From: Gammaproteobacteria bacterium
GTDB taxonomy: Bacteria; Pseudomonadota; Gammaproteobacteria; Natronospirales; REEB76
Length of the DNA: 64,000 nucleotides
Direction: 5' to 3'
NCBI GenBank assembly: GCA_049591455.1
Contig: JBAWFA010000004.1
Location: 287,135 to 351,134, forward strand
This document shows positions 26,179-55,318 of the stretch, in pieces. The stretch's first letter is position 1. The number at the start of each line of letters is the position of its first letter. The notes beneath the pieces were generated by a model. The model was not told the DNA's origin. It saw only the letters and a list, made by a program, of their open reading frames with translations, and ran no database searches. Both the position numbers and the translations under genes were made by a program.

Positions 26179-26188
26179 GGATATCTCC

Positions 26189-26611: not shown

Positions 26612-26623
26612 CGTCGCCTCCTG

Positions 26624-26983: not shown

Positions 26984-26990
26984 GGGGACC

Positions 26991-30200: not shown

Positions 30201-30601
30201 TCAACCCTCCAGGACTGCTTCGCCAGCGAAATATCAAACACGTTAAGACGTTCATCGCCCGGGCACACGATGGTGGTTCCGGTGCAGACGCCTATGCAGT
30301 CCAGTCCATTAGGCGCTGTGAACAGAACGATGTCGCCGCGGCGCGCACACAACGGTCCCTTGGGCTCGCCCAGGAAATGCGTCAGCAGGCCAGCCAAACC
30401 GCCGTAGGTGGCAATGATCTTGTAGGCTTCTTCACGGTTGGAATAGGTGCCACGCAGCGCCGCGGCCTTGTCTTCGCCCGTCATGGCAAGCACGGCATCC
30501 GCCGCAAACAGGCAGCAGTCGTTCACCCCCCATTTGTGCGCAGTGCGCTTTCGCTCATCCACGAGCTTCAAGAGTTGTTCAAGCCACGCCTTCTTTCGCA
30601 T
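30197..30601 (-). CDS. Tail-associated NlpC/P60-like / DUF6950-like protein (GTA gp14 position)
   Basis: HKWGVNDCCLFAADAV (putative catalytic Cys context). Size and position between the gp13-like gene and the fibre. Its stop overlaps the fibre ATG (ATGA). Confidence 0.45.
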   Translation of the reverse strand: MRKKAWLEQLLKLVDERKRTAHKWGVNDCCLFAADAVLAMTGEDKAAALRGTYSNREEAYKIIATYGGLAGLLTHFLGEPKGPLCARRGDIVLFTAPNGLDCIGVCTGTTIVCPGDERLNVFDISLAKQSWRVE

Positions 30602-30603
30602 GT

Positions 30604-34742: not shown

Positions 34743-34773
34743 TTGTACTCTCCGATCGGTTCAATGGAACTTG

Positions 34774-35181
34774 TTATGAGGTGGCGCGTGATAGATCGCC
34801 GGCGGCGACCAGCGACAGCTTGGTCATGGCCTCCTGGCCGACACTGCCGGATAGCGGCTCGTAGCTCTCGACCAGACATGTCCCTGTGAAGGATGGATTC
34901 GTCGCTGAACGTGCACCACTGACGGCTTTCACATCGATGGTGGTAGTGGTGCCGATGAGCGGGAACAGCGTCGCATCTACCGTCTCGCTGCCGAAATCCT
35001 GGAAGAAGTCGATGCTCATGCTCCAGTCTAATAGACCGCCCATGGAGCTTTTGGTGGTGTCGCCCATCGCGGTGTTGTCGAGTGCCCCCGCTTTGTAGCT
35101 GATCGATACCTGTTTCACATAGGCGGACAGATCAACGCTGTCGATGAGCACTTGTGCATTGTCAAGAACAATACCTGGCAT
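34774..35181 (-). CDS. Tail tube-like protein (short paralogue, 135 aa)
   Basis: Position directly upstream of the chaperones. Its N-terminus is homologous to the neighbouring 235-aa protein (L.NA.V...LS....SYKA.ALD.T..GD.T...GGL.D). Confidence 0.55.
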   Translation of the reverse strand: MPGIVLDNAQVLIDSVDLSAYVKQVSISYKAGALDNTAMGDTTKSSMGGLLDWSMSIDFFQDFGSETVDATLFPLIGTTTTIDVKAVSGARSATNPSFTGTCLVESYEPLSGSVGQEAMTKLSLVAAGDLSRATS

Positions 35182-35220
35182 GATGACTCTCCTGATGAAT
35201 GAATGCGGTCAAACCGCGGA

Positions 35221-35928
35221 CTACTGGACTCCCATCGCGAGGATGAAGGCGAAAACTGGATCTGTACCGGTGATGGTCCAAATCGGCTGATACCAGGTCT
35301 CCGCGAGCGCACCCTCTACCGACATGAATTGCGCGCCGATTCCGGTGGCGGCATCGAATGTCAGGACCGTGGTCGGCTCTGCGAAGGCATCGCTGCTGTC
35401 GCCCTGGATGGCCATCGTCATGGATGGTGTGGTGCCAGCCACGCTCAGCACGTGCAAGGATGCCCACAAAGACTGCCCGGCACCCACCGCACCCAGATTG
35501 AAACCCGTACCATTGCCAGAAGCGGTGATGCCGCTCTTGTTGGCGCCCAACAAACCGCGGATCAGATTGCTCTGCGCATCCGCGGTGAGTGAAAACGGCA
35601 TGTTGTCGCCGACAGTGGTGCCGATCTGATATTCGATATCCAACACTTTGAGAAAGAAAGCGACTGTGCCTTCGGCCGGTAGGGACGCCATCGTCATGAT
35701 GTCGCCCTGGCCAACATCATTGAAAAGCTCGGCGTCCGTTCCGGTATCCCAGAAACCCTTGCAGCTGATGGCGATGTCCTTGAGGCCACCGATCTTCTGG
35801 TTTGTGTTGTCACCGAAGCGTGTATCGTCCAGGGCAGCAGCCTTGTAGGACAGCGCCAGTGAATTCATGTCGCCGGACAGGTTGTAGCCGCCGAGGACGA
35901 CTAATGCATTTTTAAGCAGTAAGCCCAT
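35221..35928 (-). CDS. Major tail tube-like protein (long paralogue, 235 aa)
   Basis: Internal ATG 35928 (MGLLLKNALVVLGGYNLSGD..). It follows the DUF3168-like gene, the usual major tail protein slot. Confidence 0.55.
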   Translation of the reverse strand: MGLLLKNALVVLGGYNLSGDMNSLALSYKAAALDDTRFGDNTNQKIGGLKDIAISCKGFWDTGTDAELFNDVGQGDIMTMASLPAEGTVAFFLKVLDIEYQIGTTVGDNMPFSLTADAQSNLIRGLLGANKSGITASGNGTGFNLGAVGAGQSLWASLHVLSVAGTTPSMTMAIQGDSSDAFAEPTTVLTFDAATGIGAQFMSVEGALAETWYQPIWTITGTDPVFAFILAMGVQ

Positions 35929-35932
35929 GGCT

Positions 35933-36331
35933 TTACTCCTGGTAGATGACCTCGAAATCAACGGCACGCTGGAACTTGCGCGCCTGTTCATCAAAGAGAT
36001 CGTGAACACCCATGCGATAGACATCCTCGATTGTCATGCTGCCCCAGTCGCCTGTGACCGTGCCCATATAGCGTGATAATGCCGTGGTGACTGCATCGGC
36101 GACGCCCTGCGCGCCTGTCATGGACACAGCCCAACAAGAGACCTGCAGACGCCGGCGTACGATGCCAATATCGGCGCCCATCGCCGGCGACGGCGTTTCG
36201 GATATGAATGTGTATGTCAGCGCTGGATAGGTTGGCTCCTGTGGCAAAAGCGCCGGGTAAATCCTCCCATCGATGAGGGCGCTAACGCCGTCATTGGTAT
36301 TCAGCACTGTGAAAATGGCATCTTCAATCAT
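35933..36331 (-). CDS. Tail completion/terminator protein (DUF3168-like)
   Basis: 132 aa, MIEDAIFTVLNTNDGVSALIDGRIYPALLPQEPTYPALTY.. pattern, positioned between the gp10-like and tube genes. Confidence 0.6.
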   Translation of the reverse strand: MIEDAIFTVLNTNDGVSALIDGRIYPALLPQEPTYPALTYTFISETPSPAMGADIGIVRRRLQVSCWAVSMTGAQGVADAVTTALSRYMGTVTGDWGSMTIEDVYRMGVHDLFDEQARKFQRAVDFEVIYQE

Positions 36332-36750
36332 GGCTTCACGGCACGGTCAAAGCGGTTGCGGCAATAGCCGGCCAGCGTGTCAACAATTCCATACTTGATC
36401 GAGTCCCAGGCTGGTCTCACGAAGGCCTGGGCGCTCATCTTCACGGTGCCGTATTCCAGGAAGAACCAGTAAAATGCGTTTCGGCCGATACGTACGCCGG
36501 CCTCGACGCTGCCATACTGGCCACGCAGGCGTGCGGCCGTGATGGCATCACGCAGCGCACCGGCTTTCCTGTGATGCGGATTAAGCGTCTCTGGCTTCAG
36601 TACGGGCGCACCTTCACGAATCTTGTCGCGTACGTCCTTGGCCATCGCATAGACACCGCCGCGGATGATGTTCTTCGCGATGCGGGGTCCAAGCGTTTCC
36701 AGATTTGCATACAGCTCGCTCAGCCCAGGGATATCGATCTCCTCACTCAT
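36328..36750 (-). CDS. HK97 gp10-family head-tail joining protein
   Basis: 140 aa with ..AFYWFFLEYGTVKMSAQAFVRPAWD.. (the FlEfGT....a.PF.rPA signature). Confidence 0.7.
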   Translation of the reverse strand: MSEEIDIPGLSELYANLETLGPRIAKNIIRGGVYAMAKDVRDKIREGAPVLKPETLNPHHRKAGALRDAITAARLRGQYGSVEAGVRIGRNAFYWFFLEYGTVKMSAQAFVRPAWDSIKYGIVDTLAGYCRNRFDRAVKP

Positions 36751-37094
36751 TGCTCGGCCACCCGCTCGGTACAGAGGAGCGACATCTGGCGATCCTCTTC
36801 ATTGATGTTGATAACCTGGTTAATGTCGAAATAGCGGCCGTTGTAGACGATGCGCATCGTCGGATCGAGACCGGCCAGATAGCGGATCGTGATCGTGTGC
36901 GTAAGGGTCGCTTCGACCTGTTGTGCGGCCAGGAACTCACGGCCCGAAAGAGGCACGATCTTTGCCCACACGCATGCAAACGTGGTCCAGGTCGGGATCT
37001 CCTCGCCACGTGCGTTCTGGCTGGAGGCCGTTTGTTGGACCGTGATCCAGCGCTTCATTTCGCCGGACATCGCAAAGAGGGCGAGATTGGACAT
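36747..37094 (-). CDS. Head-tail adaptor / head closure protein
   Basis: 115 aa with ..WAKIVPLSGREFLAAQQVEATLTHTITIRY.....RIVYNGRYFDINQVIN, the SPP1 gp16/HK97 gp9-like signature. Confidence 0.75.
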   Translation of the reverse strand: MSNLALFAMSGEMKRWITVQQTASSQNARGEEIPTWTTFACVWAKIVPLSGREFLAAQQVEATLTHTITIRYLAGLDPTMRIVYNGRYFDINQVININEEDRQMSLLCTERVAEQ

Positions 37095-37933
37095 TAGAAG
37101 CTGTACAGCTTGTAGGCAGCGAGCAGGTATTCCACGCCCATGTCTATCTCGATGCTCACCACGCGCGCACCGGTGATAAAGGCTTCGCGGTTCTCGTAGA
37201 GCGCCCCCACCATCAGCAGGATCGCCTGCAGTATCGAGCGCGGCACCATGCCGAGATACGATGTGCCGGAGCCCACCGCGCTGGGCACGATCGCATCCCC
37301 ATCGGCGGTAGCAGATAGGCTCAAACTGCCGCCATCAACACTCACCACGTAATAGTCGATGTTGGGCGTGAAGCCAGTTGGGAGCGCGCCACCACTGTTG
37401 TACATCCTGACCGTCTGGCCAACTGTCAGGTTATGGCTCGGCGCCAACAGCGCCGCGCTTTCTGCCGTGGCCGTGAATGCCGTCGCATACCCGGAAGCGT
37501 ATTGCACCTGGATGGCATCCGGCACGTACAGGATCGGCGGGAATACCTGCTGATACGCCGGCATCAGGCGCCCAGGTTCTGTCTGATTATCCACGCTATA
37601 GAGCTCTGGATCCCACGTCTGCGTGTCCTGGTTGACATCCACATACGTCACGCTGTCCACGCACTGCAACGGCGCGAACGGCAGATCCATGACATCGCTG
37701 CGCGGGAAGCGGTCGAGAATGATCGGCCACTGATCGATCGTCATCAGCCAGGTCTGGGTAATGAGCGCACGGCTGAGATACGATTCCACGCGCTCACGCG
37801 CGGCCGTAATCAGCGCCGAGATCAGAGAATCATCATTCGTGATGGTGACACGGAGGTGGTTCTTGACCTCAGCGAGATCCAGTGGCTCGGCGAGCGGCGC
37901 CTCTACGAGCCGAAGTGCCCGATTGTGGTACAC
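37094..37933 (-). CDS. Head-tail connector, gp6-like / phiE125 gp8-like family with internal insertion
   Basis: N-terminus EPLDLAEVKNHLRVTITNDDSLISALITAARERVESYLSRALITQTW and C-terminal ..AILLMVGALYENRE. The GTG start is uncertain. Confidence 0.6.
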   Translation of the reverse strand: MYHNRALRLVEAPLAEPLDLAEVKNHLRVTITNDDSLISALITAARERVESYLSRALITQTWLMTIDQWPIILDRFPRSDVMDLPFAPLQCVDSVTYVDVNQDTQTWDPELYSVDNQTEPGRLMPAYQQVFPPILYVPDAIQVQYASGYATAFTATAESAALLAPSHNLTVGQTVRMYNSGGALPTGFTPNIDYYVVSVDGGSLSLSATADGDAIVPSAVGSGTSYLGMVPRSILQAILLMVGALYENREAFITGARVVSIEIDMGVEYLLAAYKLYSF

Positions 37934-37941
37934 GGGTCAGG

Positions 37942-38169
37942 TTACTTCGCCAATTTCTTCGGATTTTTAGACGCCGTTTCATTGCCACCCTCAGCCTCGT
38001 CAGCAGTCTCCATGACCGGCGCGCGCGCGACGCGTGTGCTGCCGGCGACGGCTTGTGCGTGACCTGCCTTAATGAGCGTCTGTGCCTCGGCATCCTGAAC
38101 TTCGTAGACTTTGCCGGCCTTGCGTACATGTTTCGGGCTGGCGGACGGTGTCAACATCTTGATCTTCAT
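37942..38169 (-). CDS. Hypothetical protein (75 aa)
   Basis: Internal ATG 38169 preceded by AGGAGA. MKIKMLTPSASPKHVRKAGKVYEV.. with a charged tail. Confidence 0.4.
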   Translation of the reverse strand: MKIKMLTPSASPKHVRKAGKVYEVQDAEAQTLIKAGHAQAVAGSTRVARAPVMETADEAEGGNETASKNPKKLAK

Positions 38170-38260
38170 GATTATCTCCTGGGTGAATGAAAGTGGGGCT
38201 TGGCAGAAGCACATCCGGTTAGGAGCCCCACGGAGCTCACCGGGTAACCCTATAGATGGA

Positions 38261-38650
38261 TTAGCTGACGGGCTGCGCCTGGCCGTGGCCCAGAACAACG
38301 CTCGCGCCGTACACGCCACCATCCGTTGCGCCTGCAACGGTTGTTACAGCACGCACGTATTGATTGCCACCGAGGTAGCCGACTTCCTGCACAGCCGAAC
38401 CACCGCTGGAAGATGTAACGGCCGCCAGCGTACCTTCCAGGAAGTCAGATGCGACCGGTGTCCAGGTGCTGCCATCGGGCGAATCCTCCACCGACGGCGT
38501 ATGGGTGCCATCGGTGATGACGCCGAAGTTGAACACGATGGTCGCCGCATCAAAGCCGGCAGTGTCAACGCTTGCGCCATTGGTCGTCGCAATGATGGCA
38601 GCAGGCATGATGGACTGCTCTACGAGCAGCTTTTGTGATTGGTCACGCAT
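38261..38650 (-). CDS. Hypothetical head-module protein (possible decoration/accessory)
   Basis: 129 aa directly after the capsid gene terminator. Gly/Thr/Ala-rich and beta-like. No motif recognised. Confidence 0.4.
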   Translation of the reverse strand: MRDQSQKLLVEQSIMPAAIIATTNGASVDTAGFDAATIVFNFGVITDGTHTPSVEDSPDGSTWTPVASDFLEGTLAAVTSSSGGSAVQEVGYLGGNQYVRAVTTVAGATDGGVYGASVVLGHGQAQPVS

Positions 38651-38661
38651 GATATTTCTCC

Positions 38662-38691
38662 AAGAAAAAGGGCGCGCCGCAGCGCGCCCTT
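38662..38691 (-). terminator. Rho-independent terminator after major capsid gene
   Basis: The minus strand reads AAGGGCGCGC-UGCG-GCGCGCCCUU followed by UUUUCUU, about 20 nt after the capsid stop. Confidence 0.7.
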
Positions 38692-38712
38692 ATGGGGTTG
38701 AAAGTCCTGTGA

Positions 38713-39942
38713 TTACGAGCTCGCGAGCTGCACGCGCACGAAGGCCTCGGCGAGCACGGGCATCGCGTCGGTTTCCTTGCGCATGATGAAGCCCACCTGG
38801 TTGCTGGCTGCATACAGCTCATTCAGCTGTTGCATCTCCATGTCCAGGGCATCCGCGATCCAGTAGTACTTCAGGTTGCCGAGCAACCCGACGTACTCAT
38901 TTGCCGTGAATGTCGCCGGCACATACTCGGATTCCAGTACCGGGATGCCGAGCAGCAGATCGGGCTGCCCCGATTGCTGGCTCTGGTTCCACAGATACCG
39001 GCCATAGTTGTCCTTCAAGGTGGACACCTGGTTGATCGCCGAGCGGCTGAACAGCCACTGGCAAGCTGCCCGGTATTGCTGCTTCAGCCCGTACTTCGCA
39101 TTGAACAGGCCATCGAACCCGATGCTGGTATCGGTATTGCCGCTGCTCACATCACGGCTGGTATCGATGCCATTTGCCGAGGCCGTGAACAGGCCGAGCG
39201 GTTGCTGAGCGCCTGAACCCGTCAGGAACGCCTGCTCTTCGGTGATGCCGAAGATGTAGCTGAACCGGTCGCTGATGAGACCATCGATCGGGACTGCGGA
39301 GATCCGAGTCAGTTTCTTGCTGACCTTGATCTGCTTCGCGATGGGATGCGGCGACAGCTCGCGCAGACCAAAGTCCATCTGCGTGTCATCGCTGCCGGTG
39401 GACAGTTCGGTCGTCCAGTCTGCATCGGACGGCTCATCGTTCAAGGTAGGAACGCCCAGTGACTGGGAGTTCGTGACCGGATGCACGGTGCCGTATTTGC
39501 GCACCCACACCAGATCCTTGAGCTTGAGGATGATCTGGTTGACGAATTCCATCGGAGGCACCAGGAAGCCGCCGGTCGAACCGATGTCGGCCTGGAAGTC
39601 TCTGAATTCTGCAACACCTTCCATGTCGCGCGCTTCGTTTCCATAGCGCAGCCAGTTCCGGAAGCCCAGCATGCGCAGCTCATCCGGCGTCCTGGTCTGT
39701 GTGCCACGGTTCTCGTTGGCGGTCTCAGCTGCTATACGCGTGGCAAGTTCCCTATCCAGAGCCTCTTGATGCTCGCGACTTTCGATCTCTGCCTTGATCT
39801 CGGCCTGTTTGGCCATGAGTTCTGTATGTTTCGCACGTTCCTCGTTGCTGAGGTTGCGCTTTTCCGACTCGGCTTTTTCAATCAACCCGCGCGCCTGATT
39901 GATGACGCGGGTGCGTTCCTCGATAAGTTCTCTGATTTTCAT
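38713..39942 (-). CDS. HK97-family major capsid protein
   Basis: 409 aa with an N-terminal coiled-coil delta-like region (..AKHTELMAKQAEIKAEIESRE..), then ..GSTGGFLVPPEF-like (STGGFLVPPMEF) and the HK97-fold body. Follows the protease gene. Confidence 0.95.
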   Translation of the reverse strand: MKIRELIEERTRVINQARGLIEKAESEKRNLSNEERAKHTELMAKQAEIKAEIESREHQEALDRELATRIAAETANENRGTQTRTPDELRMLGFRNWLRYGNEARDMEGVAEFRDFQADIGSTGGFLVPPMEFVNQIILKLKDLVWVRKYGTVHPVTNSQSLGVPTLNDEPSDADWTTELSTGSDDTQMDFGLRELSPHPIAKQIKVSKKLTRISAVPIDGLISDRFSYIFGITEEQAFLTGSGAQQPLGLFTASANGIDTSRDVSSGNTDTSIGFDGLFNAKYGLKQQYRAACQWLFSRSAINQVSTLKDNYGRYLWNQSQQSGQPDLLLGIPVLESEYVPATFTANEYVGLLGNLKYYWIADALDMEMQQLNELYAASNQVGFIMRKETDAMPVLAEAFVRVQLASS

Positions 39943-40034
39943 TGCAGTCTCCTCGGTTGACCGGCCTTAACCGGTGCGGGGAATAAAAAAACCGCCTTCC
40001 GGCGGTCGTATCTGGGAAGGCATCCTCCGATGCC

Positions 40035-41066
40035 TTAATCCAAAGTCTCCAATTCTGTCTTGAGCTTCACGATCTCAAGCGGCACTTCGTCCTCGACGGT
40101 GGCCGATGCGACATTGAGCGCCCGGTATTCCTCCAGGGCGCGAACGGCGACATGGGTTTTCTGGTATGCCGCCGACGTGACCGGTGACACGTCCAGGAGC
40201 TTGACGCTCTTGAGCGTGCGCACCATGGACTTGTCCGGCTGTTCATCCCAGCTCTGGCCACCAGGGTTGGTCCTGAAGCCGAAGCTCATCTTGTTGATAT
40301 CGCCACGCTTGATCAGATGTGTCACGTCGCGGCCAGCCTGTGTATCTGGCGGATCGATCTCCATGTGCAGCCCTAGGTCATCTTCCTTCAGCCGTAATGT
40401 GCCGGCGGATTTGCGGCCGAGCACATGATCCGGGTTGTGATTGAAGAGCGCGACCGGGTCATTCTCGTTATCGTTCAACGTGTCCTTGAACGCGCCTGGC
40501 GCGATCTTCTCGCGGAAGCCGCCCAGGTCCTGGCTCAGACTGCTGAAGACGGCGGCATGTCCGATGATTTTAGGTTTTGCATCGTCGCCGGCGCGGACCT
40601 CAATATCGTCCACGATGAAGGTACGGGTTTCATAATCCTCGCTGCTCGAACGTTGCCAGGGGACCTTGATTTCCTCATCGTCGAACGCCTTCGCCATTTT
40701 GGCGTAGTAGCGCTTGATATCAGCTTTGACGGCATCGCGATCCGCGACGGGGATCTGCACACCGCCGCGCGCGCCCTGAATAGCGGCGGCGGCGCCGTAA
40801 ATGCCTTTTGGAACTGCTGTAAGGCTCCCACCGATCACATCGGCGAACGGCAACTTGTAATCTCCGAAACGGTCTGGAACACCGTCCTTGTCAGGATCGG
40901 GTGCTGAACCGTCGAACCAGAAAAACGCCTGCGCATATTTTGGGTTTGGCGCTTTGTCGGCCTTGGCCCAGTTGCGCACGCGTTTGTCCGCTGCAGCGGC
41001 ATCCCATACGGTGTCTTTCGGAGCGAGCGGAAGATCGTGAAACTTAGGCGTGCTCATGTTGTTCAC
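40035..41066 (-). CDS. HK97-family prohead protease with ~150-aa N-terminal extension
   Basis: The C-terminal two thirds read ..IIGHAAVFSSLSQDLGGFREKIAPGAFKDTL..VALFNHNPDHVLG..MSFGF.. (S78-like). It ends in a coiled-coil tail. Confidence 0.9.
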   Translation of the reverse strand: MNNMSTPKFHDLPLAPKDTVWDAAAADKRVRNWAKADKAPNPKYAQAFFWFDGSAPDPDKDGVPDRFGDYKLPFADVIGGSLTAVPKGIYGAAAAIQGARGGVQIPVADRDAVKADIKRYYAKMAKAFDDEEIKVPWQRSSSEDYETRTFIVDDIEVRAGDDAKPKIIGHAAVFSSLSQDLGGFREKIAPGAFKDTLNDNENDPVALFNHNPDHVLGRKSAGTLRLKEDDLGLHMEIDPPDTQAGRDVTHLIKRGDINKMSFGFRTNPGGQSWDEQPDKSMVRTLKSVKLLDVSPVTSAAYQKTHVAVRALEEYRALNVASATVEDEVPLEIVKLKTELETLD

Positions 41067-42732
41067 CTGCTGTGTAACGGGAAGCGAGCTTGATCTCGCG
41101 CGTCACGATGTCGCTCGTGCGCTCGCATTCCCAAAGGGTTAAGAGCCGTTCGATGCCAGGTAAGCCCTCCGTCAGAAGTGCATCCCGGACCTGCGAGACC
41201 GACTCATTCATGTGGGTATCGACAAAACTCGACACATAAAGCGTCATGTCCTTGCGCTCTCCCTGCGCATCGGCGGCTACAGTACCAGCGATGGTGGCGG
41301 CTACCGGCCGTATCTGGCGCTCCACAAAGGGGCGATGCGTTGCATAGAAATCTGCGGCACTGCGTTCGAAGGTGTAGGCATTCCCACTGGCACCATTGAG
41401 CGCGCGTCGCAAGGCTTTCACCTCTGCCGTGACAATCTTGTCAATGGCTTGGCGCAGGTTGGGGAACTGCGCATCTACCAGACGCATGAGGCGTTTGCGC
41501 TGATCAGCCGGGTCTGGATCAGGCGCGAGCGGATCGGTTTTCTGGGCTGATGCCAGGTTCACCATCACGTAGTACTGATCACCGCCCTCGATGGGGTTGA
41601 GTCCTTCGCTGTCGCGGATCTCATTCGGACACATCGCCGCCATGTTGAACATGGCCTGGTAATAGGCTGTGCGCATGGCCGAATCGCCGCGCATCAGGTG
41701 CGAGACATCGAACTCGATGAAATATGCCGCGCGTCCCTTGGCGCTCAGCAGATCTGCATTTAGGCGCTGTTCCCAGCGCACCAGCCACGGCCGCAGCGTG
41801 TCACGCACAAACTCCATGGACTGCTGCTCGATGTTGCTGAACGTCGCACGTTCCAGGTCGGCGAGCATGTGCGGCGGGATCCGGAACATGCGTGCGATCT
41901 CGGAGATCTGGAACTTGCGCGTTTCCAGGAATTGCGCCTGCTCTGGTGATACGCCGATCGCCTGCCATTTGAGGCCGTCCTCCAGGATTGCCGGCTTGTT
42001 CGCGTTATAAGGCCCTTGGTGCCTCTCGTTCCAGCTGTCTTTCAGCCGCTTGTAGGCCACCTCGCTGAGCGGCTTATCGGACTGAAGTACGCCGCCGACA
42101 ACTGTGTTGTTGCCAAAGAAGGTGGCACCGAACTTCTCGGCCGCCTGGGCAAGTCCGATGGCTTCCTTGTTGTGCTCGATGACCGACTCGCCCTTGATGC
42201 CGTCCTCGCTGAAACAGCGGATATGCAGGATATCGTCGGGCGAATAGATGGTCACCGGTTTGTCCGGTGGCCGGTAAATGTAGCTCAGAGAACCGTTCGG
42301 GCGCCGAATCACCCGCATGAAATCAGGATGCAGCGGGCGCAGGCACGAGACCGCATTGTTCTGTGTCCCAATGATCTCCGCATAGGCATTCCCACGCAGT
42401 GTGAGGTGCCCGGTCAGCATCTCGCGCCATTCGAAGCTTGTCAGCTGCGGCGTCGGCGCATTGTGGAGCACCGAATACAAGGGATGATCGCCAGCGACTT
42501 CACGTCCACCACCAGGCAATCGCCGATAGATGTTCAGCGGAAGCGATGCAACTGACTCCGAGATGATGCGCACCGCCGTATAGACGGCTGCCAGCCGCTT
42601 TGCCGTCTGGGGAGTGACCGGAACACCGGCGGCGGTATTCGACAGTATCCCGAACCACTTCGCGATGACCGGATCCATCGGGTTGACGATGGATACGGAT
42701 GCACGTTTTTCGAACGCGCGCTCAAGAAGCAC
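41044..42732 (-). CDS. HK97-family portal protein (start 42678-42816 uncertain)
   Basis: ..AAVYTAVRIISESVASLPLNIYRR..HPLYSVLHNAPTPQLTSFEWREMLTGHLTLRGNAYAEI.. is the typical portal N-region. It has a long C-terminal extension. Confidence 0.9.
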   Translation of the reverse strand: MLLERAFEKRASVSIVNPMDPVIAKWFGILSNTAAGVPVTPQTAKRLAAVYTAVRIISESVASLPLNIYRRLPGGGREVAGDHPLYSVLHNAPTPQLTSFEWREMLTGHLTLRGNAYAEIIGTQNNAVSCLRPLHPDFMRVIRRPNGSLSYIYRPPDKPVTIYSPDDILHIRCFSEDGIKGESVIEHNKEAIGLAQAAEKFGATFFGNNTVVGGVLQSDKPLSEVAYKRLKDSWNERHQGPYNANKPAILEDGLKWQAIGVSPEQAQFLETRKFQISEIARMFRIPPHMLADLERATFSNIEQQSMEFVRDTLRPWLVRWEQRLNADLLSAKGRAAYFIEFDVSHLMRGDSAMRTAYYQAMFNMAAMCPNEIRDSEGLNPIEGGDQYYVMVNLASAQKTDPLAPDPDPADQRKRLMRLVDAQFPNLRQAIDKIVTAEVKALRRALNGASGNAYTFERSAADFYATHRPFVERQIRPVAATIAGTVAADAQGERKDMTLYVSSFVDTHMNESVSQVRDALLTEGLPGIERLLTLWECERTSDIVTREIKLASRYTAGEQHEHA

Positions 42733-42895
42733 TGGTTTCGTCCTTCGGCGCACGTGCCGTCCATGCAATGAGGGCCGCAAATGCCAGCATGAAGGCGCCG
42801 GCGACGGCGCATCCAAGCGCCATATTGACCAGCGCCGCGGCTACCGTACAGGCGAGCGCGCCGCAGATGGCGAGTATGTCGGACAGATACTTCAC
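42722..42895 (-). CDS. 57-aa two-TM peptide between terminase and portal (hypothetical)
   Basis: My translation from a GTG overlapping the terL TGA (GTGA) gives VKYLSDILAICGALACTVAAALVNMALGCAVAGAFMLAFAALIAWTARAPKDETSAS. It is below the track length cut-off. Confidence 0.3.
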   Translation of the reverse strand: MKYLSDILAICGALACTVAAALVNMALGCAVAGAFMLAFAALIAWTARAPKDETSAS

Positions 42896-44670
42896 AGGGT
42901 TCGTATGCCTCGCTCATCGTAGACTGACTTCGATACGGCGGGTTCATGCATGACGGTCGCACGTCCCAGCGCCATCAGCATCGCTACCATGGGATCAATT
43001 TTTTCGAGTGAGTTCTTCTTGTCCGGCGCCATGTTCTCGTTCTGATCGCGCCGCGCCACGATGTTCGACGCCGACCAGGTCAGTACCGGGCTGCCGTCAT
43101 GATCGACCTTCGCGCCCTTGAGCAGCCGTTCGAACTCTTTCATCGCCGGGTGGTAGCTCTTGGCGCCCTGGCGGAATTCCACCATCGGCGCGCCATTCTC
43201 CTGCAGCCGGTTCACGACGCTGGTCGCGTTCCAGGGATCGAAGGCGATTTCCTTGATCTTGAAGCGCCGCATGGCCGCTTCGATGTCGCGCTGCACAAAG
43301 GCGTCGTCGAACACGTTGCCCGGCGTCAGCGTCAGGAACTTCTGTACAGCCCACACCTGGTACGGCACGTTGCCGCGCTCGGATCTGGGCGCAACCGTCT
43401 CTTCCGGCAGGTAACACCGCGCATGGATCTTGAGACGCCCGTCCACCAGCCAGACCAGCACGAAGGCCGTGATGTCTGAGGTGGCCGCGAGATCGAGACC
43501 GCCAAAACCCTCCACCTCCTGAAGTGCATCGAGGTCAATCGTTTTGCCGCAGCGCTTCCACTGCTCCATGTTGAGCCAGCCCTTATGCGCCGTCGTCCAT
43601 CGGTTGAGGCGCTTCGTCAGGAACTCGCCGCGACTGTCGGGCGATTGCTTGGCTTCCTTGGCATAGCTGCGCATGGATTCGAGGCTAGGCGTGATCCCCA
43701 GCATCGGGTTGGCCTTGATCCAGACCTTCTCGTCATATTCGTCATCGCCCTCATCAAGAGTGAAGATGACACCGAAATAGTGGTCGGCGCTGAAAATGCC
43801 GTCCAGGATGTTCTCTACCAGGCGATGCTGCTCATAGCACACGCCGATGCTGTTATAACCGGCCGTCGTGATGCGCCACATCAACGGATTCTTGCGCGAA
43901 CCGAATGACGATTTGATCACGTCATGTAGCCCACGATCCTTGTGGGCATGCAGCTCGTCCAGAATCCCGACATGCGGATTCCAGCCATCCTGCGTCGAGG
44001 ACTTGGCATTGATCGGCTGGATGAAGCCGTCGTTAATCCCGCAGCTGATCGAATGCGCCCAGGCCTTCACATCGAAGGCTTCGCGCAGTTCGCGCGTTCT
44101 CTGCACCATGCGCAGCGCTGGGTTGAACACCTTGAGCGCCTGGCTGCCAGTGGTGGCGCCTATCACCACCTGGGGTCCGGGTTCATGTTCGGACGTCAGG
44201 CAATACAAACCGATGCCGGCGGTGAGGGTGGATTTAGCTCCCTTGCGCGCCATCTCGATGTAAACGTCCGTGAAACGCCTGGCGCGCGTATCGCGCCGGC
44301 GAAACCCGAACACGTTCACCAGAATGAATATCTGCGGCGGTTCAAGCCGGATCGTTTTGGTTGCCCAGCTCCCCTCGATATGCGGCAGCTTTTCTATGAA
44401 GTCGCAGACGTTGTTGCCTTCCCAGGCATCGAAACTGAAATAGCAGCCAGCGGTCTTGGCGCGCTTCAGATCATCCAGAAATCGGCGCGCAGCCTTCTGC
44501 AGCCACCTGCAGTGAGTGAGATGCCTGCGATCCGCGATGGCCGCAGCGGCAAAATCATAGGCCAACTGGCAGTAATTACTTGCGTGGCCGGTCTCTGCGA
44601 ATACTGGCTTGCTCGATTTCTTAGGCCGGCGCCCGGAGATTGCGCGTGAACGGGTTTTCCGTTTTTTCAT
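42892..44670 (-). CDS. terL: Terminase large subunit
   Basis: 592 aa with a Walker-A-like MARKGAKST, an ATPase and nuclease two-domain layout, and the Terminase_1-type pattern. Confidence 0.95.
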   Translation of the reverse strand: MKKRKTRSRAISGRRPKKSSKPVFAETGHASNYCQLAYDFAAAAIADRRHLTHCRWLQKAARRFLDDLKRAKTAGCYFSFDAWEGNNVCDFIEKLPHIEGSWATKTIRLEPPQIFILVNVFGFRRRDTRARRFTDVYIEMARKGAKSTLTAGIGLYCLTSEHEPGPQVVIGATTGSQALKVFNPALRMVQRTRELREAFDVKAWAHSISCGINDGFIQPINAKSSTQDGWNPHVGILDELHAHKDRGLHDVIKSSFGSRKNPLMWRITTAGYNSIGVCYEQHRLVENILDGIFSADHYFGVIFTLDEGDDEYDEKVWIKANPMLGITPSLESMRSYAKEAKQSPDSRGEFLTKRLNRWTTAHKGWLNMEQWKRCGKTIDLDALQEVEGFGGLDLAATSDITAFVLVWLVDGRLKIHARCYLPEETVAPRSERGNVPYQVWAVQKFLTLTPGNVFDDAFVQRDIEAAMRRFKIKEIAFDPWNATSVVNRLQENGAPMVEFRQGAKSYHPAMKEFERLLKGAKVDHDGSPVLTWSASNIVARRDQNENMAPDKKNSLEKIDPMVAMLMALGRATVMHEPAVSKSVYDERGIRTL

Positions 44671-45034
44671 CTTTGCCTTTGGGTACGCGACTGCGACTTG
44701 CCGGCGTCACACCGAATTCAGCCTGATACAGACGCAGCTGCGCCACCAAACTGGCATTGACACTTTCGCCGGCGACGACAGACTGCACCATCTTGCCGTA
44801 AAGCATGCACATCGTGGCCAATGCAGGTAGATCCGGCTCTGATAGCACACCCTTCGACTGCAATATGGGCACGATCCGGCGCCATTCTTTCTGAGCGTGT
44901 ACATTCAACCAATCAGGCGCAGCTACTTCACCGGTCAGTGGTTCGAACTGCAGCTCATTCGGGTTCATGCGCCGCGGCGCTGCGGTGCCCTGAACAATCT
45001 TCAGATGGTTGGATGTTTTGCGTCTGCCTGGCAT
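44621..45034 (-). CDS. terS: Terminase small subunit, P27 family
   Basis: 137 aa, MPGRRKTSNHLKIVQGT..P..A..EW..I...L...GVL...D...L...C..Y......... matches the P27-family pattern. Overlaps terL. Confidence 0.8.
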   Translation of the reverse strand: MPGRRKTSNHLKIVQGTAAPRRMNPNELQFEPLTGEVAAPDWLNVHAQKEWRRIVPILQSKGVLSEPDLPALATMCMLYGKMVQSVVAGESVNASLVAQLRLYQAEFGVTPASRSRVPKGKDEKTENPFTRNLRAPA

Positions 45035-45140
45035 TTTTGAAAACCCGAAAGTTTAAATTCGACTATGCGAAAATTTGGCTGCGGGCGCGGTCTGGAATGG
45101 AAAAGCTTCCAGAAATATATCCCCCTACCCGTGACATATC

Positions 45141-45506
45141 TCAACGAGAATTATGCTGGGCGAAGCGGCTGTCTTGGGTCGCCGTCTTTCGATTGTGGCA
45201 CCGGCGGCATAAGGACTGCCAGTTGGTGCGGTCCCAGAAGATCGTGGTATTGCCGCGGTGTGGGACGATGTGGTCAACCACAGATGCCAGCATTGTTTTA
45301 CCGTTCTTCTCACACTCCACACAGAGTGGATGACGCTTTAAATATCCTGCACGTGCTCGTTGCCATGCTCCGGAGTAGCCTCGCTGCGCACTGGTGCCAC
45401 GTTCTTGCGATGTTTCGCGCGGCCGGTGTGCATCGCAGTAGGCACTATTTGTTGTCAGTGCAGCACATCCTGACTGAGCACATGGGCGCTTTGCACGGTG
45501 TGGCAA
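45141..45506 (-). CDS. HNH endonuclease (packaging-associated)
   Basis: ..HPLCVECEKNGK....VVDHIVPH.....FWDRTNWQSLCRRCHNRKT. HNH motif. Classic position upstream of terS in HK97-like cos phages. Confidence 0.85.
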   Translation of the reverse strand: MPHRAKRPCAQSGCAALTTNSAYCDAHRPRETSQERGTSAQRGYSGAWQRARAGYLKRHPLCVECEKNGKTMLASVVDHIVPHRGNTTIFWDRTNWQSLCRRCHNRKTATQDSRFAQHNSR

Positions 45507-45533
45507 TGCTGCAACTCGGTAGATTCCCTGGGC

Positions 45534-45558
45534 AATAAAAAACGCGCCGAAGCGCGTC
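45534..45558 (-). terminator. Rho-independent terminator of the membrane zinc-ribbon gene
   Basis: The minus strand reads ACGCGC-UUCG-GCGCGU followed by UUUUUUAUU, about 20 nt after the stop at 45580. Confidence 0.6.
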
Positions 45559-45579
45559 CTGAAGAAATCAATTACTGTA

Positions 45580-45855
45580 TTACTTCAATGTGACCTTGCA
45601 TGTCGGGCACATCTTGACCCTGCGATCCGCGACAGGGTTACCACAGGCACCACATCTCCATTTAAGCGACATTCTCGAACCTATCATGAAAAGAAGCAGC
45701 GCGAGAATAATACCAACTGGAATACCGATGATGCCAAACATAAAAGAGGCCAGGAAAACGATGATCGCAACCACCTGAATCAGCGCACCAACACCAACAA
45801 ATTCATGCTTGCGACGAACACGCGCTGTTTGCTGGTCTGATGCGGCTTCGATCAT
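45580..45855 (-). CDS. Membrane protein with C-terminal zinc ribbon (moron candidate)
   Basis: 91 aa with two TM segments (GALIQVVAIIVFLASFMFGIIGIPVGIILALLLFMIG), then CGACG..(10)..CPTC. A/T-rich relative to flanks and has its own terminator. Confidence 0.5.
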   Translation of the reverse strand: MIEAASDQQTARVRRKHEFVGVGALIQVVAIIVFLASFMFGIIGIPVGIILALLLFMIGSRMSLKWRCGACGNPVADRRVKMCPTCKVTLK

Positions 45856-45925
45856 GCGGGTGGGAGCTCGTCCAACTTACCAGCTAACCTAGCATAAACT
45901 GTCCGGAAATTAAAGGATGGAAGCG

Positions 45926-46396
45926 TCACGCTGCTTTCGCTTTCTCGGCTATCAACCATCGCCGCATCGCGGCATATCCTGTGATGCAGTCTGCGGCCAG
46001 CCTGGCATGGCTCTGTGAGCGCTTGAGGCCATACAGTTGCTCAGCAATCCACCATTCCGGTCTTAACCGGATGAGCTGACCGTACACCATGCGTCGGTGG
46101 CGCGCGATGAGGGCGGCATAAGCGGCCGGCAGGATGATCGAGAGCGCTGCCATAAAGTTATCGATAGCGGGGCTGATGTAGTCCGGAGCTGGTGCTGATT
46201 CTCTTGCATAGCCCGTAGCCTCATCGGCTGTGGCCGCACCGCGGTCATAAATCTCATCCATAATTGCCGGTGGACTGCCGGCCCACGTTAATCCGCAAGT
46301 ATGCATCACCGCTCTGGAATCGGCGTGCAGACACCAATTTGCCCATCTTTTCATTAGCTTGCGTTCAGATTCCCAGTCTTCTCGATTCTGACTCAT
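45926..46396 (-). CDS. Hypothetical protein, possible late-gene regulator (Q-like position)
   Basis: Internal ATG 46396 (MSQNREDWESERKLMKRWANW..). It sits at the early/late boundary. Any resemblance to antiterminator Q families is weak. Confidence 0.3.
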   Translation of the reverse strand: MSQNREDWESERKLMKRWANWCLHADSRAVMHTCGLTWAGSPPAIMDEIYDRGAATADEATGYARESAPAPDYISPAIDNFMAALSIILPAAYAALIARHRRMVYGQLIRLRPEWWIAEQLYGLKRSQSHARLAADCITGYAAMRRWLIAEKAKAA

Positions 46397-46400
46397 GGGT

Positions 46401-46781
46401 TCAATGCATCCTGTAAGCGCTACTGTGGGCGCGTGTGCGAAGTACTGCTCTGCCGTTTGTACCGAAAACCATGGCCTCCAGCTGGTTGAGATCATTGACG
46501 GTGCCGATGAAGTCGCCATACAGCTGCGGATTCTGCAACCAGCGGTCGCACATCATCGGGATCATGGCGATGTAGTGGCCCGAGGGATCCTGACCGACGC
46601 CAGCGAAGGGACTGCCTCTCAAAATGTCCAGAACGGCGGCTTTCAACCGTGACACAATCTGGCTCCGCGTTTCGACTTTCCAGTGCTCCAACCAGTCGGC
46701 TTTGCCGCAATGCGGACATCCCCAGGGCGGATTCTCGTTTGGCGGGTAGGATTCCCCACAATGGCGGCACAAGTTGATCAT
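46401..46781 (-). CDS. Zinc-ribbon protein (hypothetical)
   Basis: N-terminal CRHCG..(13)..CPHCG. Confidence 0.45.
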   Translation of the reverse strand: MINLCRHCGESYPPNENPPWGCPHCGKADWLEHWKVETRSQIVSRLKAAVLDILRGSPFAGVGQDPSGHYIAMIPMMCDRWLQNPQLYGDFIGTVNDLNQLEAMVFGTNGRAVLRTRAHSSAYRMH

Positions 46782-47275
46782 GCGCGCTTCAACCTCCGGA
46801 TATCTTCAAACCGGAGCCGTAATGTGAGACAGTGCAGGTTGAACAGACCGAAGCTGCTGACGCCTTCGGCTAGATACTCCTCCAGGAGCGTTCTCGCCTC
46901 ATCCCACCCGTAACAGGGGGCGGCCGCATGACCTGCTTTCTCCATCTTGCATATCCAGCTTTCCTGCTCATCCGTAACGGCATCTCTAGCCGCTGAGCGC
47001 GACGGGAATGCGTGTATAGGCTTTTTCATCTCGATCCAGAGGCCGTGAAATCCATGGCGCGCGAGCGGTAGAAACAGATCCACCACCCCTTTCTTGACGC
47101 CGAGGCCGGCCATGCGTGCGGCTTCGGTGTAAAGCCGTTTCCCGCCATTCGGATAGGCGATGAGGTAATCCGAGAGCGTTGCATGCGCGATGACATCACT
47201 GCCGCGCAAAGGCGTAATGCGCGCCCAGCCCATCAAGGCCTTCTGTTCGGCGTCTTCAAGGTGTTGCATGGTCAA
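46778..47275 (-). CDS. VRR-NUC domain nuclease
   Basis: ..GVVDLFLPLARHGFHGLWIEMKK.. (the D...E.K PD-(D/E)xK core of VRR-NUC). Confidence 0.75.
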   Translation of the reverse strand: MTMQHLEDAEQKALMGWARITPLRGSDVIAHATLSDYLIAYPNGGKRLYTEAARMAGLGVKKGVVDLFLPLARHGFHGLWIEMKKPIHAFPSRSAARDAVTDEQESWICKMEKAGHAAAPCYGWDEARTLLEEYLAEGVSSFGLFNLHCLTLRLRFEDIRRLKRA

Positions 47276-53592: not shown

Positions 53593-55086
53593 ATGATCAG
53601 AGCCGCCCTATACCTGCGCAGTTCGAAGGATCGTAGTGACGTCTCCATCGATGCGCAGCGCCGGGAGTTGCGCGCCTTAGCCGATGCCAAGGGCTTCATT
53701 ATCGTCAAGGAATTTTCTGATGTGGTGGAATCGGCAAAGACCGAGAACCGCCCTGCCTTCCAGTTGCTCCTGTCAGACCTCAAAAACGATGCCAGAGGCT
53801 GGGATCATCTCCTACTGACAGATACCTCTCGCCTGTCGCGCCGCCAATACATGGCCCACGTGTTCGATCATGAATGCGCCAAACGCCGTGTGACGGTGAT
53901 CTATTCAAAGCTGCCGAACGTGGATGAACTGACGAACATGGTGGTAAAGAGCGTGCTGCGCGTGTTCGATGAATTCCACAGCCACATGAGCCGTGCCAAA
54001 GGCCTCGCCGGCATGGCTGAGAACGTGCGTCGCGGATACCGCGCCGGCGGCCGTGCTCCACGCGGATACCGGCTCGAGCACATCGCTACCGGCGCGATCA
54101 GGGATGGCATTCCCGTGATGAAGTCGCACCTGGTGCTGAGCATGGAGGCTTCGAACGTGCGCGCCTATTTGAATGCGCGCGTGATGGGGCGTCCAAGACG
54201 GGCAGCGGCGCTGGCTGCCACGATGCCAGGTACTGGTTTGGTGGATCTCGAATGGAATGCACTGACCTATGCTGGGTGCACCGTGTGGAATATGCGCAGC
54301 CCCTATCTGGAAGGGGTGCGCCAGGGACGGAAACGGCGCCCACGCAGTGAATGGGTGATACAGGAGGGTACACATGAGGCGCTGATCGGGCGCGACGATG
54401 CGGAGCGATTGCTCAGCAGACTTGAAAACCGGTCAGAGCATAATTACCGCTGTCGAGAATCCGCACACGTGCTCGCCGGTGTGCTGCGCACGCCTGCCGG
54501 GATTCCATGGAATGGGTGGGGACGTCGCCGGTATCAGACGATCGTCGGTGGGCGCCGGCGTTCCATCAAGGCCTCAACCGTCGACACCGCGGTCCTTGCG
54601 CGCATCCGCGAAGATCTCCTGGCACCGGCGTTCATCAGCGCGCTGGTGGTGGAAGCGCAGAACACCATCAAACGCCCCGGTTCCGATGCCATCCAGACGG
54701 CGCGGCGTGAGCTCCGCGAATTCACAAGACGCATCAGCGTCCTGGTGGATATGGCCACGGAGACTATGGAACGGGGGCCCATCATGCGGAAGATCGAGGA
54801 ATGCGAGGGGCGCAGGCAAGCAACGGAGGCAGAGATTGCGCGCCTGGAGCGCGAGGCCAGGGCACGCACGATCATGACCGGTGTGTCAGAAGACCAGGTG
54901 CGCCGGGCGCTTGAACACCAGCTTTCTGGCATTCAGAGGCAGGATGGGAGGGGAATCGTCGGCAGGATGGTGGAACGGGTCATCTTGGACCCGGAAACAC
55001 TGGAATGCCGGATACGGTACAGAATCGCTGTTGTGCGGGATAAGATGGCGTCCCCAGCGGGAGTCGAACCCGCGTTACCGCCGTGA
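53593..55086 (+). CDS. int: Large serine recombinase (phage integrase)
   Basis: 497 aa. N-terminal resolvase-type catalytic domain (AALYLRSSKDRSDVSIDAQRREL), a recombinase domain (RAGGRAPRGYRL), and a C-terminal coiled-coil region. The 3' end overlaps tRNA-Glu. Confidence 0.9.
   Translation: MIRAALYLRSSKDRSDVSIDAQRRELRALADAKGFIIVKEFSDVVESAKTENRPAFQLLLSDLKNDARGWDHLLLTDTSRLSRRQYMAHVFDHECAKRRVTVIYSKLPNVDELTNMVVKSVLRVFDEFHSHMSRAKGLAGMAENVRRGYRAGGRAPRGYRLEHIATGAIRDGIPVMKSHLVLSMEASNVRAYLNARVMGRPRRAAALAATMPGTGLVDLEWNALTYAGCTVWNMRSPYLEGVRQGRKRRPRSEWVIQEGTHEALIGRDDAERLLSRLENRSEHNYRCRESAHVLAGVLRTPAGIPWNGWGRRRYQTIVGGRRRSIKASTVDTAVLARIREDLLAPAFISALVVEAQNTIKRPGSDAIQTARRELREFTRRISVLVDMATETMERGPIMRKIEECEGRRQATEAEIARLEREARARTIMTGVSEDQVRRALEHQLSGIQRQDGRGIVGRMVERVILDPETLECRIRYRIAVVRDKMASPAGVEPALPP
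55044..55057. repeat. attR-side copy of att core
   Basis: GATGGCGTCCCCAG, identical to 22446..22459. It overlaps the tRNA-Glu 3' end and the int 3' end. Confidence 0.6.
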
Positions 55087-55121
55087 AAGGGCGATGTCCT
55101 GGGCCTCTAGACGATGGGGAC
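55046..55121 (-). tRNA. tRNA-Glu (UUC)
   Basis: The reverse complement GTCCCCATCGTCTAGAGGCCCAGGACATCGCCCTTTCACGGCGGTAACGCGGGTTCGACTCCCGCTGGGGACGCCA folds as a cloverleaf. Anticodon loop CUUUCAC. Encoded CCA. Confidence 0.95.
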
Positions 55122-55183: not shown

Positions 55184-55259
55184 TGGTGGAGCCAGCCGGG
55201 ATCGAACCGGCGACCTCCTGCATGCCATGCAGGCGCTCTCCCAGCTGAGCTATGGCCCC
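55184..55259 (-). tRNA. tRNA-Ala (GGC)
   Basis: The reverse complement GGGGCCATAGCTCAGCTGGGAGAGCGCCTGCATGGCATGCAGGAGGTCGCCGGTTCGATCCCGGCTGGCTCCACCA. G3:U70 context. Anticodon GGC. Confidence 0.95.
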
Positions 55260-55318
55260 ACGCGGGGCGCGTATTTTCGGGCTTGGTGTGAGGGCTGTCA
55301 ATCAAAACCCGCCGGAAA

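Follow-up and report, generated by a model that had tools for sequence, protein, structure and literature searches.

Here we analysed a stretch of 64,000 nucleotides (subsequently designated the window; contig JBAWFA010000004.1, positions 287,135 to 351,134 of the forward strand) from the Gammaproteobacteria bacterium assembly GCA_049591455.1, which harbors a siphovirus-like prophage of 32.6 kb adjoining a tRNA-Glu gene. The prophage gene int encodes a large serine recombinase (LSR) and reads across the core of the attachment (att) site into the tRNA gene, which leaves the recombinase with two alternative C-termini: the excised isoform has a basic, phage-templated tail of 30 amino acids and the integrated isoform a tRNA-templated tail of 9 amino acids. 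We favor, at somewhat better than even confidence, the view that the phage attachment site attP is located in the 3’ end of int itself, that the bacterial site attB is the 3’ part of tRNA-Glu(UUC), and that the tail of the excised isoform is a degradation signal (degron), which is removed by integration.

The two C-termini can be read directly from the window. In agreement with a first-pass annotation of this DNA, the 497-residue Int protein encoded by the open reading frame (ORF) 53593..55086 ends with ...RDKMASPAGVEPALPP-stop, i.e. with ...KMASP-AGVEPALPP-stop. The final 41 nt of the gene (55046..55086) are antisense to tRNA-Glu. This length had been given correctly by the annotation, but the overlap is not restricted to the acceptor and T arms as it had stated: starting at the CCA end, it proceeds through the T arm and reaches also the anticodon stem and loop, and its stop codon TGA (55084..55086), when reverse-complemented, consists of anticodon bases 2 and 3 plus the following A. 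The 14-bp repeat GATGGCGTCCCCAG, which encodes K-MASP, is present in exactly two copies in the window, starting at 22446 and 55044, as had been reported. When the ends of the prophage are joined at this core, the frame remains open for 30 further codons, reading ...MASP-GILEATPAEVAQLRTEVSCGILSGRRRRVA-stop and yielding a protein of 518 amino acids; the same frame makes up the end of the ORF mechanically called at 22189..22551. The circle junction predicted in this way reads ...GGATAAGATGGCGTCCCCAGGGATATTAG... and the predicted empty site ...GAGCTGGATGGCGTCCCCAGCGGGAGTCG.... The earlier claims of a frame that stays open up to position 22551, and of a 9-residue host-templated versus a 30-residue basic phage-templated tail, hold accordingly, the latter also in the light of a natural junction in a related phage (see below). 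The phage arm preceding the att centre (P arm) copies the last 11–12 nt of the tRNA, comprising the acceptor 3’ strand and CCA, and therefore the tRNA remains intact after integration. Since the 12 bases left of the centre are needed to rebuild acceptor end and CCA, the peptide MASP is fixed in the integrase.

Repeats of this length as such are not rare, as the window contains, a tandem array left aside, 30 other maximal exact direct repeat pairs of 14 bp or more; for the core sequence at its pre-specified site only about 5e-4 copies are expected elsewhere. A chance repeat as origin of the core was rejected on the basis of comparisons with other genomes, which provide independent evidence for the prophage boundaries. 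The metagenomic phage contig L001, of which a second copy exists (L002), encodes a 518-residue integrase (P0003) that is 64% identical to Int. This contig aligns to window positions 54973..55057 and then without break to positions 22448..22540, and it evidently represents the unintegrated attP arrangement of a related phage, joined exactly at the core. Comparison of the tRNA-Glu loci of prophage-free relatives had been proposed by the first-pass annotation. We carried it out as a scan anchored at Kup, the product of the left host flank, in metagenome-assembled genomes (MAGs) of uncultured Gammaproteobacteria (Kup 73–89% identical). In 15 of the 31 closest loci, all from other genomes, tRNA-Glu was found 214–508 bp upstream of the kup match; tRNA-Ala precedes it in 14 of these 15 cases, and none of them has a prophage at this position. 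The left flank of the window (22180..22445) aligns to the spacer between tRNA-Glu and kup of the prophage-free relatives. A further related MAG (L003) carries a related prophage at the same tRNA-Glu, with an integrase 69% identical to Int. The junction in L001 and the matching left flank bear out the placement of the prophage ends at the core repeats, and these alignments show the crossover to fall within the 14 bp. An exact-pattern search of genome and metagenome contigs for the reconstructed empty attB of this species gave no match.

The architecture of the att site was addressed in silico using 37 distinct attP sequences of the integrase family. In these sequences, attP is an imperfect palindrome of ~44 bp whose symmetry extends over about 21 bp in both directions from a non-palindromic centre. 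A single position stands out as centre of the dyad; it corresponds to 55056/55057 in the window and separates the third base of the Pro codon from the base that follows. Complementarity over ±24 bp reaches 59.5% at this centre as compared to about 31–40% at other centres; by distance, it amounts to 0.95–1.0 at positions 1–2 and to 0.86–0.97 at positions 17–19, and it is at background beyond position 21. The central dinucleotide is AC in 21 of the sequences, AA in 7, AG in 6 and TA in 3, and is thus non-palindromic (AC, AA or AG) in 34 of the 37 cases. We infer that exchange in the window takes place at the AG dinucleotide. Read outward from the centre, a CCC triplet occupies positions 17–19 in both attP arms (P and P’) and positions 12–14 in the B’ arm of attB, and CCA occupies positions 12–14 in the B arm, which amounts to a 5-bp shift between attP and attB. 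In the A118/LI model, such a shift of the distal motif is how serine integrases distinguish the two sites. The target provides a natural palindrome at the centre, where the 3’ strand of the T stem (CCCCN) meets the 3’ strand of the acceptor stem (NGGGGAC). The predicted sites hence resemble those of characterised serine integrases in being short imperfect palindromes with a central dinucleotide and in having the distal motif of attP located 5 bp further out.

Int was also compared with LSRs at the level of the protein. The Pfam domain Resolvase (PF00239) matches residues 4–148 (E 6.8e-21), i.e. the catalytic resolvase-type N-terminal domain with its nucleophilic serine is present, and residues Y7, R9, S10 and S11 are invariant across 50 homologues. 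The Recombinase domain (PF07508), which in LSRs follows the long αE helix, is matched marginally in Int (21.9 bits versus a cut-off of 21.1); precomputed matches to PF07508 exist for many homologues, and the fold also matches structures 4bqq and 4kis, in line with the presence of this domain. PHROG assigned Int to the integrase family phrog_95 (E 3.7e-44). For homologue P0003 an AlphaFold2 model of the 518 residues was built from 56 homologues in the unintegrated form (mean predicted local distance difference test, pLDDT, of 85). Its best Foldseek matches are full-length integrase-att complexes (9dxh, phiC31 9rah and Bxb1 9iu2; E about 1e-14), and long helices at residues 325–459 represent the coiled coil that LSRs have inserted in their C-terminal DNA-binding domain. 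A zinc ribbon was not matched by Pfam in Int, and the family consensus YLLTGLLxTPDGxxWxG lacks conserved Cys residues; the β-strands flanking the coiled coil (residues 305–324 and 460–476) are still present in the model. Thus, Int is an LSR by all tests that could be run, a recognisable Cys4 zinc ribbon excepted. The pLDDT drops below 50 at residues 480–502 and 505–518, a range that includes the core-encoded peptide (KLASP in P0003) and the tail. Core-encoded peptide and tail are therefore predicted to form a disordered appendage beyond the last β-strand.

Int belongs to a large family, with 1337 homologues at E≤1e-10 in a database clustered at 90% identity and 187 clusters at E≤1e-30 in a library of 50%-identity representatives. 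Two types of C-terminus, both containing an almost invariant A-S-P, can be distinguished among them. In the first, integrated class, ASP is followed by exactly nine residues, typically RGFEPLLPP, as observed for 34 of 34 distinct tRNA-type tails in the first homologue set; the full set comprises 48 distinct tRNA-Glu-type tails. This ending is the in-frame translation of antisense tRNA-Glu, terminated by a TGA that is complementary to the anticodon region. Indeed, in all 15 loci with continuing DNA the beginning of a tRNA-Glu(ttc) lies 40 nt ahead of the int stop codon and tRNA-Ala often comes next; the same tRNA-Ala/tRNA-Glu pair is found in relatives and beside prophages of the family. In the second class ASP(RG) precedes a tail of 12–42, mostly 15–25 residues, of which 127 distinct versions were collected. 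The corresponding integrases reside inside viral contigs of ~36–42 kb, and they are the unintegrated forms. These data show that an attP inside int is a trait of a large uncharacterised LSR family of uncultured Proteobacteria and their phages rather than a peculiarity of one prophage. Among cultured phages (INPHARED) the best homologue is only 23% identical and none is close, and plasmids (PLSDB) gave no match to int at E≤1e-20; consequently, there is no characterised relative from which a function could be borrowed.

Some members of the family deviate from this scheme. In P0188, P0202, P0210, L058 and L064 int runs at its 3’ end into another antisense tRNA, which is read in another frame (WRPHGDSNP...); the integrated forms of this sub-branch end with ...RERVLS, whereas the unintegrated form L058 still ends with ...NRRAA, and L064 ends with ...NRRARW. 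This suggests that the target was switched with attP kept inside int. In another sub-branch (L009, L019 and L027, also L023 and L043) the tail reads ...LRSNPRGDA(T/N)L..., and in three of them (L009, L019 and L027) the int stop codon is followed after 6–26 nt by the start of a tRNA-Asp(gtc) of the same orientation, a geometry unlike that of the tRNA-Glu group. Many IMG/VR provirus contigs stop precisely with the last codon of int, the stop codon within tRNA-Glu (L006, L008, L012, L022, L024, L028, L030, L034, L040, L042, L046, L047 and L050). Trimming of proviruses at gene ends thus cuts off part of the tRNA, and the att site is no longer visible.

The tails of the unintegrated forms share a characteristic end. 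Of 127 distinct tails, 76 end with Ala as compared to 9.7% Ala in the tail bodies, and 63 end with [AVIL]A, usually following Arg or Lys; position -3 carries Arg or Lys in 68 of the tails, as does position -4 in 51. The excised-form tail of the window ends with ...RRRRVA and fits the consensus [R/K]-[R/K]-[A/V]-A-COOH, which as a sequence motif resembles the ssrA-like type of tag known from the viral form of the phage BPs repressor. When the 50%-identity clusters are represented by one member each, 24 of 39 have a tail ending with Ala. The motif is located at variable distance from the core, 36–126 nt away. In the 43 distinct tails for which DNA was available, the terminal Ala is encoded by GCC (12), GCG (7), GCA (7) or GCT (6), and the stop codon is TGA (16), TAG (16) or TAA (11). 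With every possible Ala codon and stop codon in use and tail lengths variable, no fixed DNA element can be responsible and selection would act on the protein. The tail of the excised form thus appears to be selected as a peptide.

This does not apply to the beginning of the tail. Its first 7–8 codons lie in the P’ arm, and the recurrent RG as well as the Pro of a recurrent ‘IP’ mirror the P arm; beyond the P’ arm the information content of the DNA is low. The recurrent features of this part are attributable to the constraint on attP at the level of DNA and not to the peptide. Accordingly, an explanation at the DNA level was accepted for the first ~7 codons and rejected for the terminal residues, where codons vary and the symmetry is gone beyond 21 bp. 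That all conservation past the core reflects DNA alone (the P’ arm, or a terminator or promoter) and that the open frame is incidental is hardly credible: the recurrent Pro codon (CCC at +17 to +19) does mirror GGG in the P arm and the block GTCTCYTGCGGCRTTTTAAGCGGCCGGARGCGCC is nearly identical in the window and L001, but dyad symmetry is at background and information content low beyond 21 bp, and the terminal motif recurs further out at variable distance and with varied codons.

How could the conserved end function? ClpX recognises two types of C-terminal signals, C-motif-1 (ssrA-like, LAA) and C-motif-2 (the basic-hydrophobic end of MuA, R/H-x-K/R-K-hydrophobic) (PMC3983244). The terminal [R/K][R/K]-[A/V]-A-COOH would resemble both, combining features of ssrA and MuA, and we therefore read it as a putative degradation tag. 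Integrase made from an infecting or freshly excised genome would then probably be short-lived. Integration would swap the degradation signal for ...EPxLPP, and the prophage would from then on encode a tag-free integrase, the isoform that later carries out excision dependent on a recombination directionality factor (RDF). Each direction of recombination could thus be performed by an isoform of its own. The first-pass annotation had suggested that the switch could couple integrase stability, DNA binding or directionality to the state of integration. A coupling to stability is plausible, and the conserved terminal motif, its conservation at the amino acid level and the predicted disorder of the tail support this stability version of the idea. 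A more far-reaching version is tentative, and we hold it to be somewhat less probable than not: a switch contained in one gene, in which a ClpX-type degron would make integrase level and lysogeny decision report the protease capacity of the host, integration would delete the degron by means of antisense-tRNA codons, the stable prophage isoform would be dedicated to RDF-dependent excision, and the whole would be conserved across a large clade of tRNA-Glu-targeting serine integrases of uncultured Proteobacteria. Transcription may contribute as well. A promoter-like site upstream of tRNA-Ala points through both tRNAs into int in antisense orientation, and the minus strand within int revealed no terminator-like site; convergent transcription from this site of the tRNA operon could, as a weaker possibility, damp int expression in the lysogen.

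Several observations weigh against a degron. Apart from the DNA-level constraint on the first codons, about 40% of the tails lack a terminal Ala, including that of the closest unintegrated relative L001 (...RHIV). Tail length is no greater than that of a chance open frame in DNA of 58% G+C. The tails of the window and L001, equal in length (93 nt) and in the position of the stop codon, are 68% identical, and identity falls to 23% right after the stop codon; their differences are distributed 9/8/13 over the three codon positions, a weak third-position bias, and 13 codons differ non-synonymously as opposed to 5 synonymously. The enrichment of Ala was counted without regard to phylogeny, for which the representatives of 50%-identity clusters are a partial control only. 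Finally, the exact excised attP junction of this phage is absent from the viral and metagenome contig collections searched, and an exact look-up of the 518-residue excised isoform gave no match, the excised form being documented only for the 64%-identical relative (L001/L002).

Some of these points would equally fit a neutral origin of the exchange, which we consider unlikely but the most serious of the alternatives. The position of attP at the 3’ end of int could simply follow from the need of the phage to carry the tRNA 3’ end beside its integrase gene, and both tails could be tolerated as disordered appendages that have no regulatory role. The predicted disorder beyond the last β-strand, the integrated tail that is dictated wholly by the tRNA sequence, tail lengths near the chance expectation, the absence of terminal Ala from about 40% of the tails and the weak purifying selection between window and L001 are all compatible with this explanation. 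It does not account for the recurrence of [R/K][R/K][A/V]A at variable distance from the core among 127 distinct tails, for its presence in 24 of 39 different clusters with all Ala and stop codons in use, or for its persistence in sub-branches with another tRNA-like core, such as L058 with its end ...NRRAA.

Alternatively, the excised tail might act in recombination rather than in proteolysis, e.g. as a basic arm on attP or attB DNA or by modulating interactions of the coiled coil or the RDF, in which case the swap would tune directionality, with the tailed isoform serving integration and the tRNA-tailed isoform excision. The composition of the tail bodies, 21% R+K versus 6% D+E, would suit such a function, and from the geometry of the prophage it should be the tRNA-tailed isoform that is available when excision takes place. 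The acidic patches by which phiC31 integrase binds its RDF include residues of the extreme C-terminus (D590-D592) (bioRxiv 10.1101/2025.05.02.651858). However, conservation in the family peaks at the last two residues and the free C-terminus, which is typical of recognition by proteases or PDZ-type domains and not of DNA binding; moreover, no structure is predicted for the tail and no RDF was identified in the window. We regard a role in recombination as improbable, clearly more so than a neutral origin.

The putative degron switch can be compared with known systems in which integration alters a protein, the nearest ones being those of phages Mx8 and BPs. In Myxococcus phage Mx8 (IntP/IntX), attP is also located inside int and integration provides the gene with a new 3’ end and hence the protein with a new C-terminus, by which Int is not inactivated but reportedly changed in its properties (PMC6070905). 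The family described here shares this arrangement, but Mx8 Int is a tyrosine recombinase, whereas the present Int is an LSR with simple sites of ~44 bp. The target of Mx8 is likewise the 3’ end of a tRNA gene (tRNA-Asp), and its integration replaces a long C-terminal segment, while exchange is limited here to a disordered tail past the last folded element. In mycobacteriophage BPs, which shows integration-dependent immunity, integration removes a C-terminal degradation tag from the repressor, and Int itself is C-terminally tagged (PMC3694055). As in BPs, Brujita and relatives, attP resides inside an ORF and the viral and prophage proteins differ at the C-terminus; however, BPs splits the repressor gene and its tyrosine Int keeps the tag, whereas here the split gene is that of the serine integrase itself. 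Degradation is an experimental finding for BPs and is what we infer for Int. The system works like the BPs switch and belongs to neither the BPs nor the Mx8 system; it resembles a fusion of both ideas in a serine recombinase.

With the serine integrases of phiC31, Bxb1, A118/LI and TP901-1, Int shares the order of catalytic domain, recombinase domain and a presumed zinc-ribbon-like domain with inserted coiled coil, and the fold matches characterised large serine integrases with Foldseek E values of 1e-14 to 1e-5. Differences are the sequence identity of only 13–18%, the missing Pfam match for a zinc ribbon and a consensus lacking Cys ligands. The attP sites of these four integrases are intergenic and integration leaves the protein unaltered; to our knowledge, none of them targets a tRNA gene. 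Archaeal integrases of the SSV1 type do have attP inside the integrase gene and a tRNA gene as target, but these enzymes belong to the tyrosine recombinases and their gene is split and thereby disrupted upon integration, whereas Int exchanges a short tail. TnpX of Tn4451 is an LSR whose expression depends on the state of the element, as the circular joint creates the tnpX promoter; unlike the case of Int, this coupling is transcriptional, concerns the 5’ end and leaves the protein sequence unchanged. The integrase of phiC31 ends with ...VAA, and its residues 590–605 lack density in cryo-electron microscopy (bioRxiv 10.1101/2025.05.02.651858). A disordered Ala-Ala C-terminus may hence be more widespread among serine integrases than the present family. 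Our searches of the open-access literature revealed no serine recombinase whose attP is located in its own gene, and none targeting tRNA-Glu, and a large survey of LSRs nowhere mentions tRNA (PMC10083194). This and the lack of a close homologue in characterised phages agree with the first-pass annotation, which knew of no LSR with attP inside its gene.

Serine integrases are the main tools for insertion of large DNA and are usually described with intergenic att sites and a single protein form. The clade addressed here, large and uncharacterised, would depart from this design, as its att site is part of the recombinase gene and its target a near-universal, naturally palindromic stretch of tRNA-Glu, and two protein isoforms would be tied to the two directions of recombination. 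If the excised tail is a degron, the logic of the BPs-type integration switch would no longer be confined to tyrosine recombinases and Actinobacteria but would apply to serine recombinases and Proteobacteria as well, and nature would thereby offer a compact way of making integrase expression self-limiting. For tests of new orthogonal integrases, the att-site logos and the tRNA-Glu target can be used directly. The features of the window on which the analysis is based are compiled in Table 1.

Table 1. Coordinates of int, att sites, tRNA genes and flanking features in the window.
Feature	Position	Strand	Description	Basis
int	53593..55086	+	Large serine recombinase, integrated isoform, 497 aa	ORF list, Pfam, PHROG, fold match
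Core, attR copy	55044..55057	.	14-bp core GATGGCGTCCCCAG, encodes (K)-M-A-S-P; 55046..55057 = tRNA-Glu 3’-terminal 12 nt	Exact repeat; L001 junction falls here
Core, attL copy	22446..22459	.	14-bp core, displaced tRNA-Glu 3’ end plus 2 nt	Exact repeat; left flank aligns to tRNA-Glu-kup spacer
Predicted crossover dinucleotide	55056..55057	.	AG (attL equivalent 22458..22459); tRNA positions 65/66, T stem/acceptor stem junction	Dyad centre
attP P arm	55035..55055	.	In int codons (...VVRDKMASP); CCC 17-19 nt from centre read outward	Family dyad
attP P’ arm	22460..22480	.	First 7 codons of phage-templated tail; CCC 17-19 nt from centre	Family dyad
Integrated tail	55058..55086	+	Host-templated (A)GVEPALPP-stop, antisense to tRNA-Glu T arm, variable loop, anticodon stem/loop	Sequence, tRNA prediction
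Excised-isoform tail	22460..22551	+	Phage-templated (G)ILEATPAEVAQLRTEVSCGILSGRRRRVA-stop; stop 22549..22551	End joining, ORF list, L001 comparison
tRNA-Glu(UUC/ttc)	55046..55121	-	Intact at attR; attB target, B’ arm 55058..55078	ARAGORN, Rfam 57.9 bits
tRNA-Ala(GGC)	55184..55259	-	Upstream partner of tRNA-Glu in host tRNA operon	ARAGORN, Rfam
Promoter-like site	55273..55301	-	TTGACA-17-GAAAAT upstream of tRNA-Ala	Consensus match only
Prophage body	22460..55043	.	32,598 bp with one core copy, siphovirus-like	PHROG matches; boundaries from L001 and empty sites
Host left flank	20215..22445	-	kup K+ transporter (start near 22185) and leader	ORF list; Kup homologues 73-89% identical in gammaproteobacterial MAGs

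The siphovirus-like character of the prophage follows from PHROG matches to terminase, portal, protease, major head, tape measure, distal tail, tail fibre and replication initiator proteins. A search for an RDF upstream of int by Pfam yielded nothing convincing within the window; in L001 an HTH_17 gene is located just upstream of int and is, like the small ORFs at 52.0–53.5 kb of the window, a candidate for an RDF. The ORF directly upstream of int in the window (52879..53451, plus strand) contains seven 45-bp tandem repeats (52927..53354) encoding 15-residue units KDKLAGYQRQYRARN. Its ends are Cys-rich and zinc-ribbon-like, with a weak match to DZR_2 and to PHROG families of unknown function. 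The product could be a regulator or a directionality factor.

The host flank upstream of kup comprises a leader (22186..22445, minus strand), in which a TACAAT-like box precedes the hairpin CCGGCTGGTGCTCGAACGAGACCGGCCGG, with TTGTGTTTT coming next. This arrangement is kept upstream of kup in related MAGs, and a search of the conserved leader against Rfam matched none of the families. It may represent an attenuator or an unknown K+-related leader. Further into the host DNA, at 19478..19551 on the minus strand, Rfam gave a match to the SAM_alpha riboswitch (39 bits, gathering score 36), in a genome whose closest relatives carry the label Gammaproteobacteria.

Within the prophage, a gene near its left end (23147..23485, minus strand) encodes the N-terminal domain of a dATP/dGTP diphosphohydrolase (PF18909, E 6e-19). 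Enzymes of this type have been linked to manipulation of the nucleotide pool by phages. The first prophage ORF after attL (22602..23123, plus strand) matches no Pfam or PHROG family; its product begins with MKPLFALIVCSLMLVGCST, which resembles a lipoprotein signal, and the ORF is probably a cargo gene at the prophage end.

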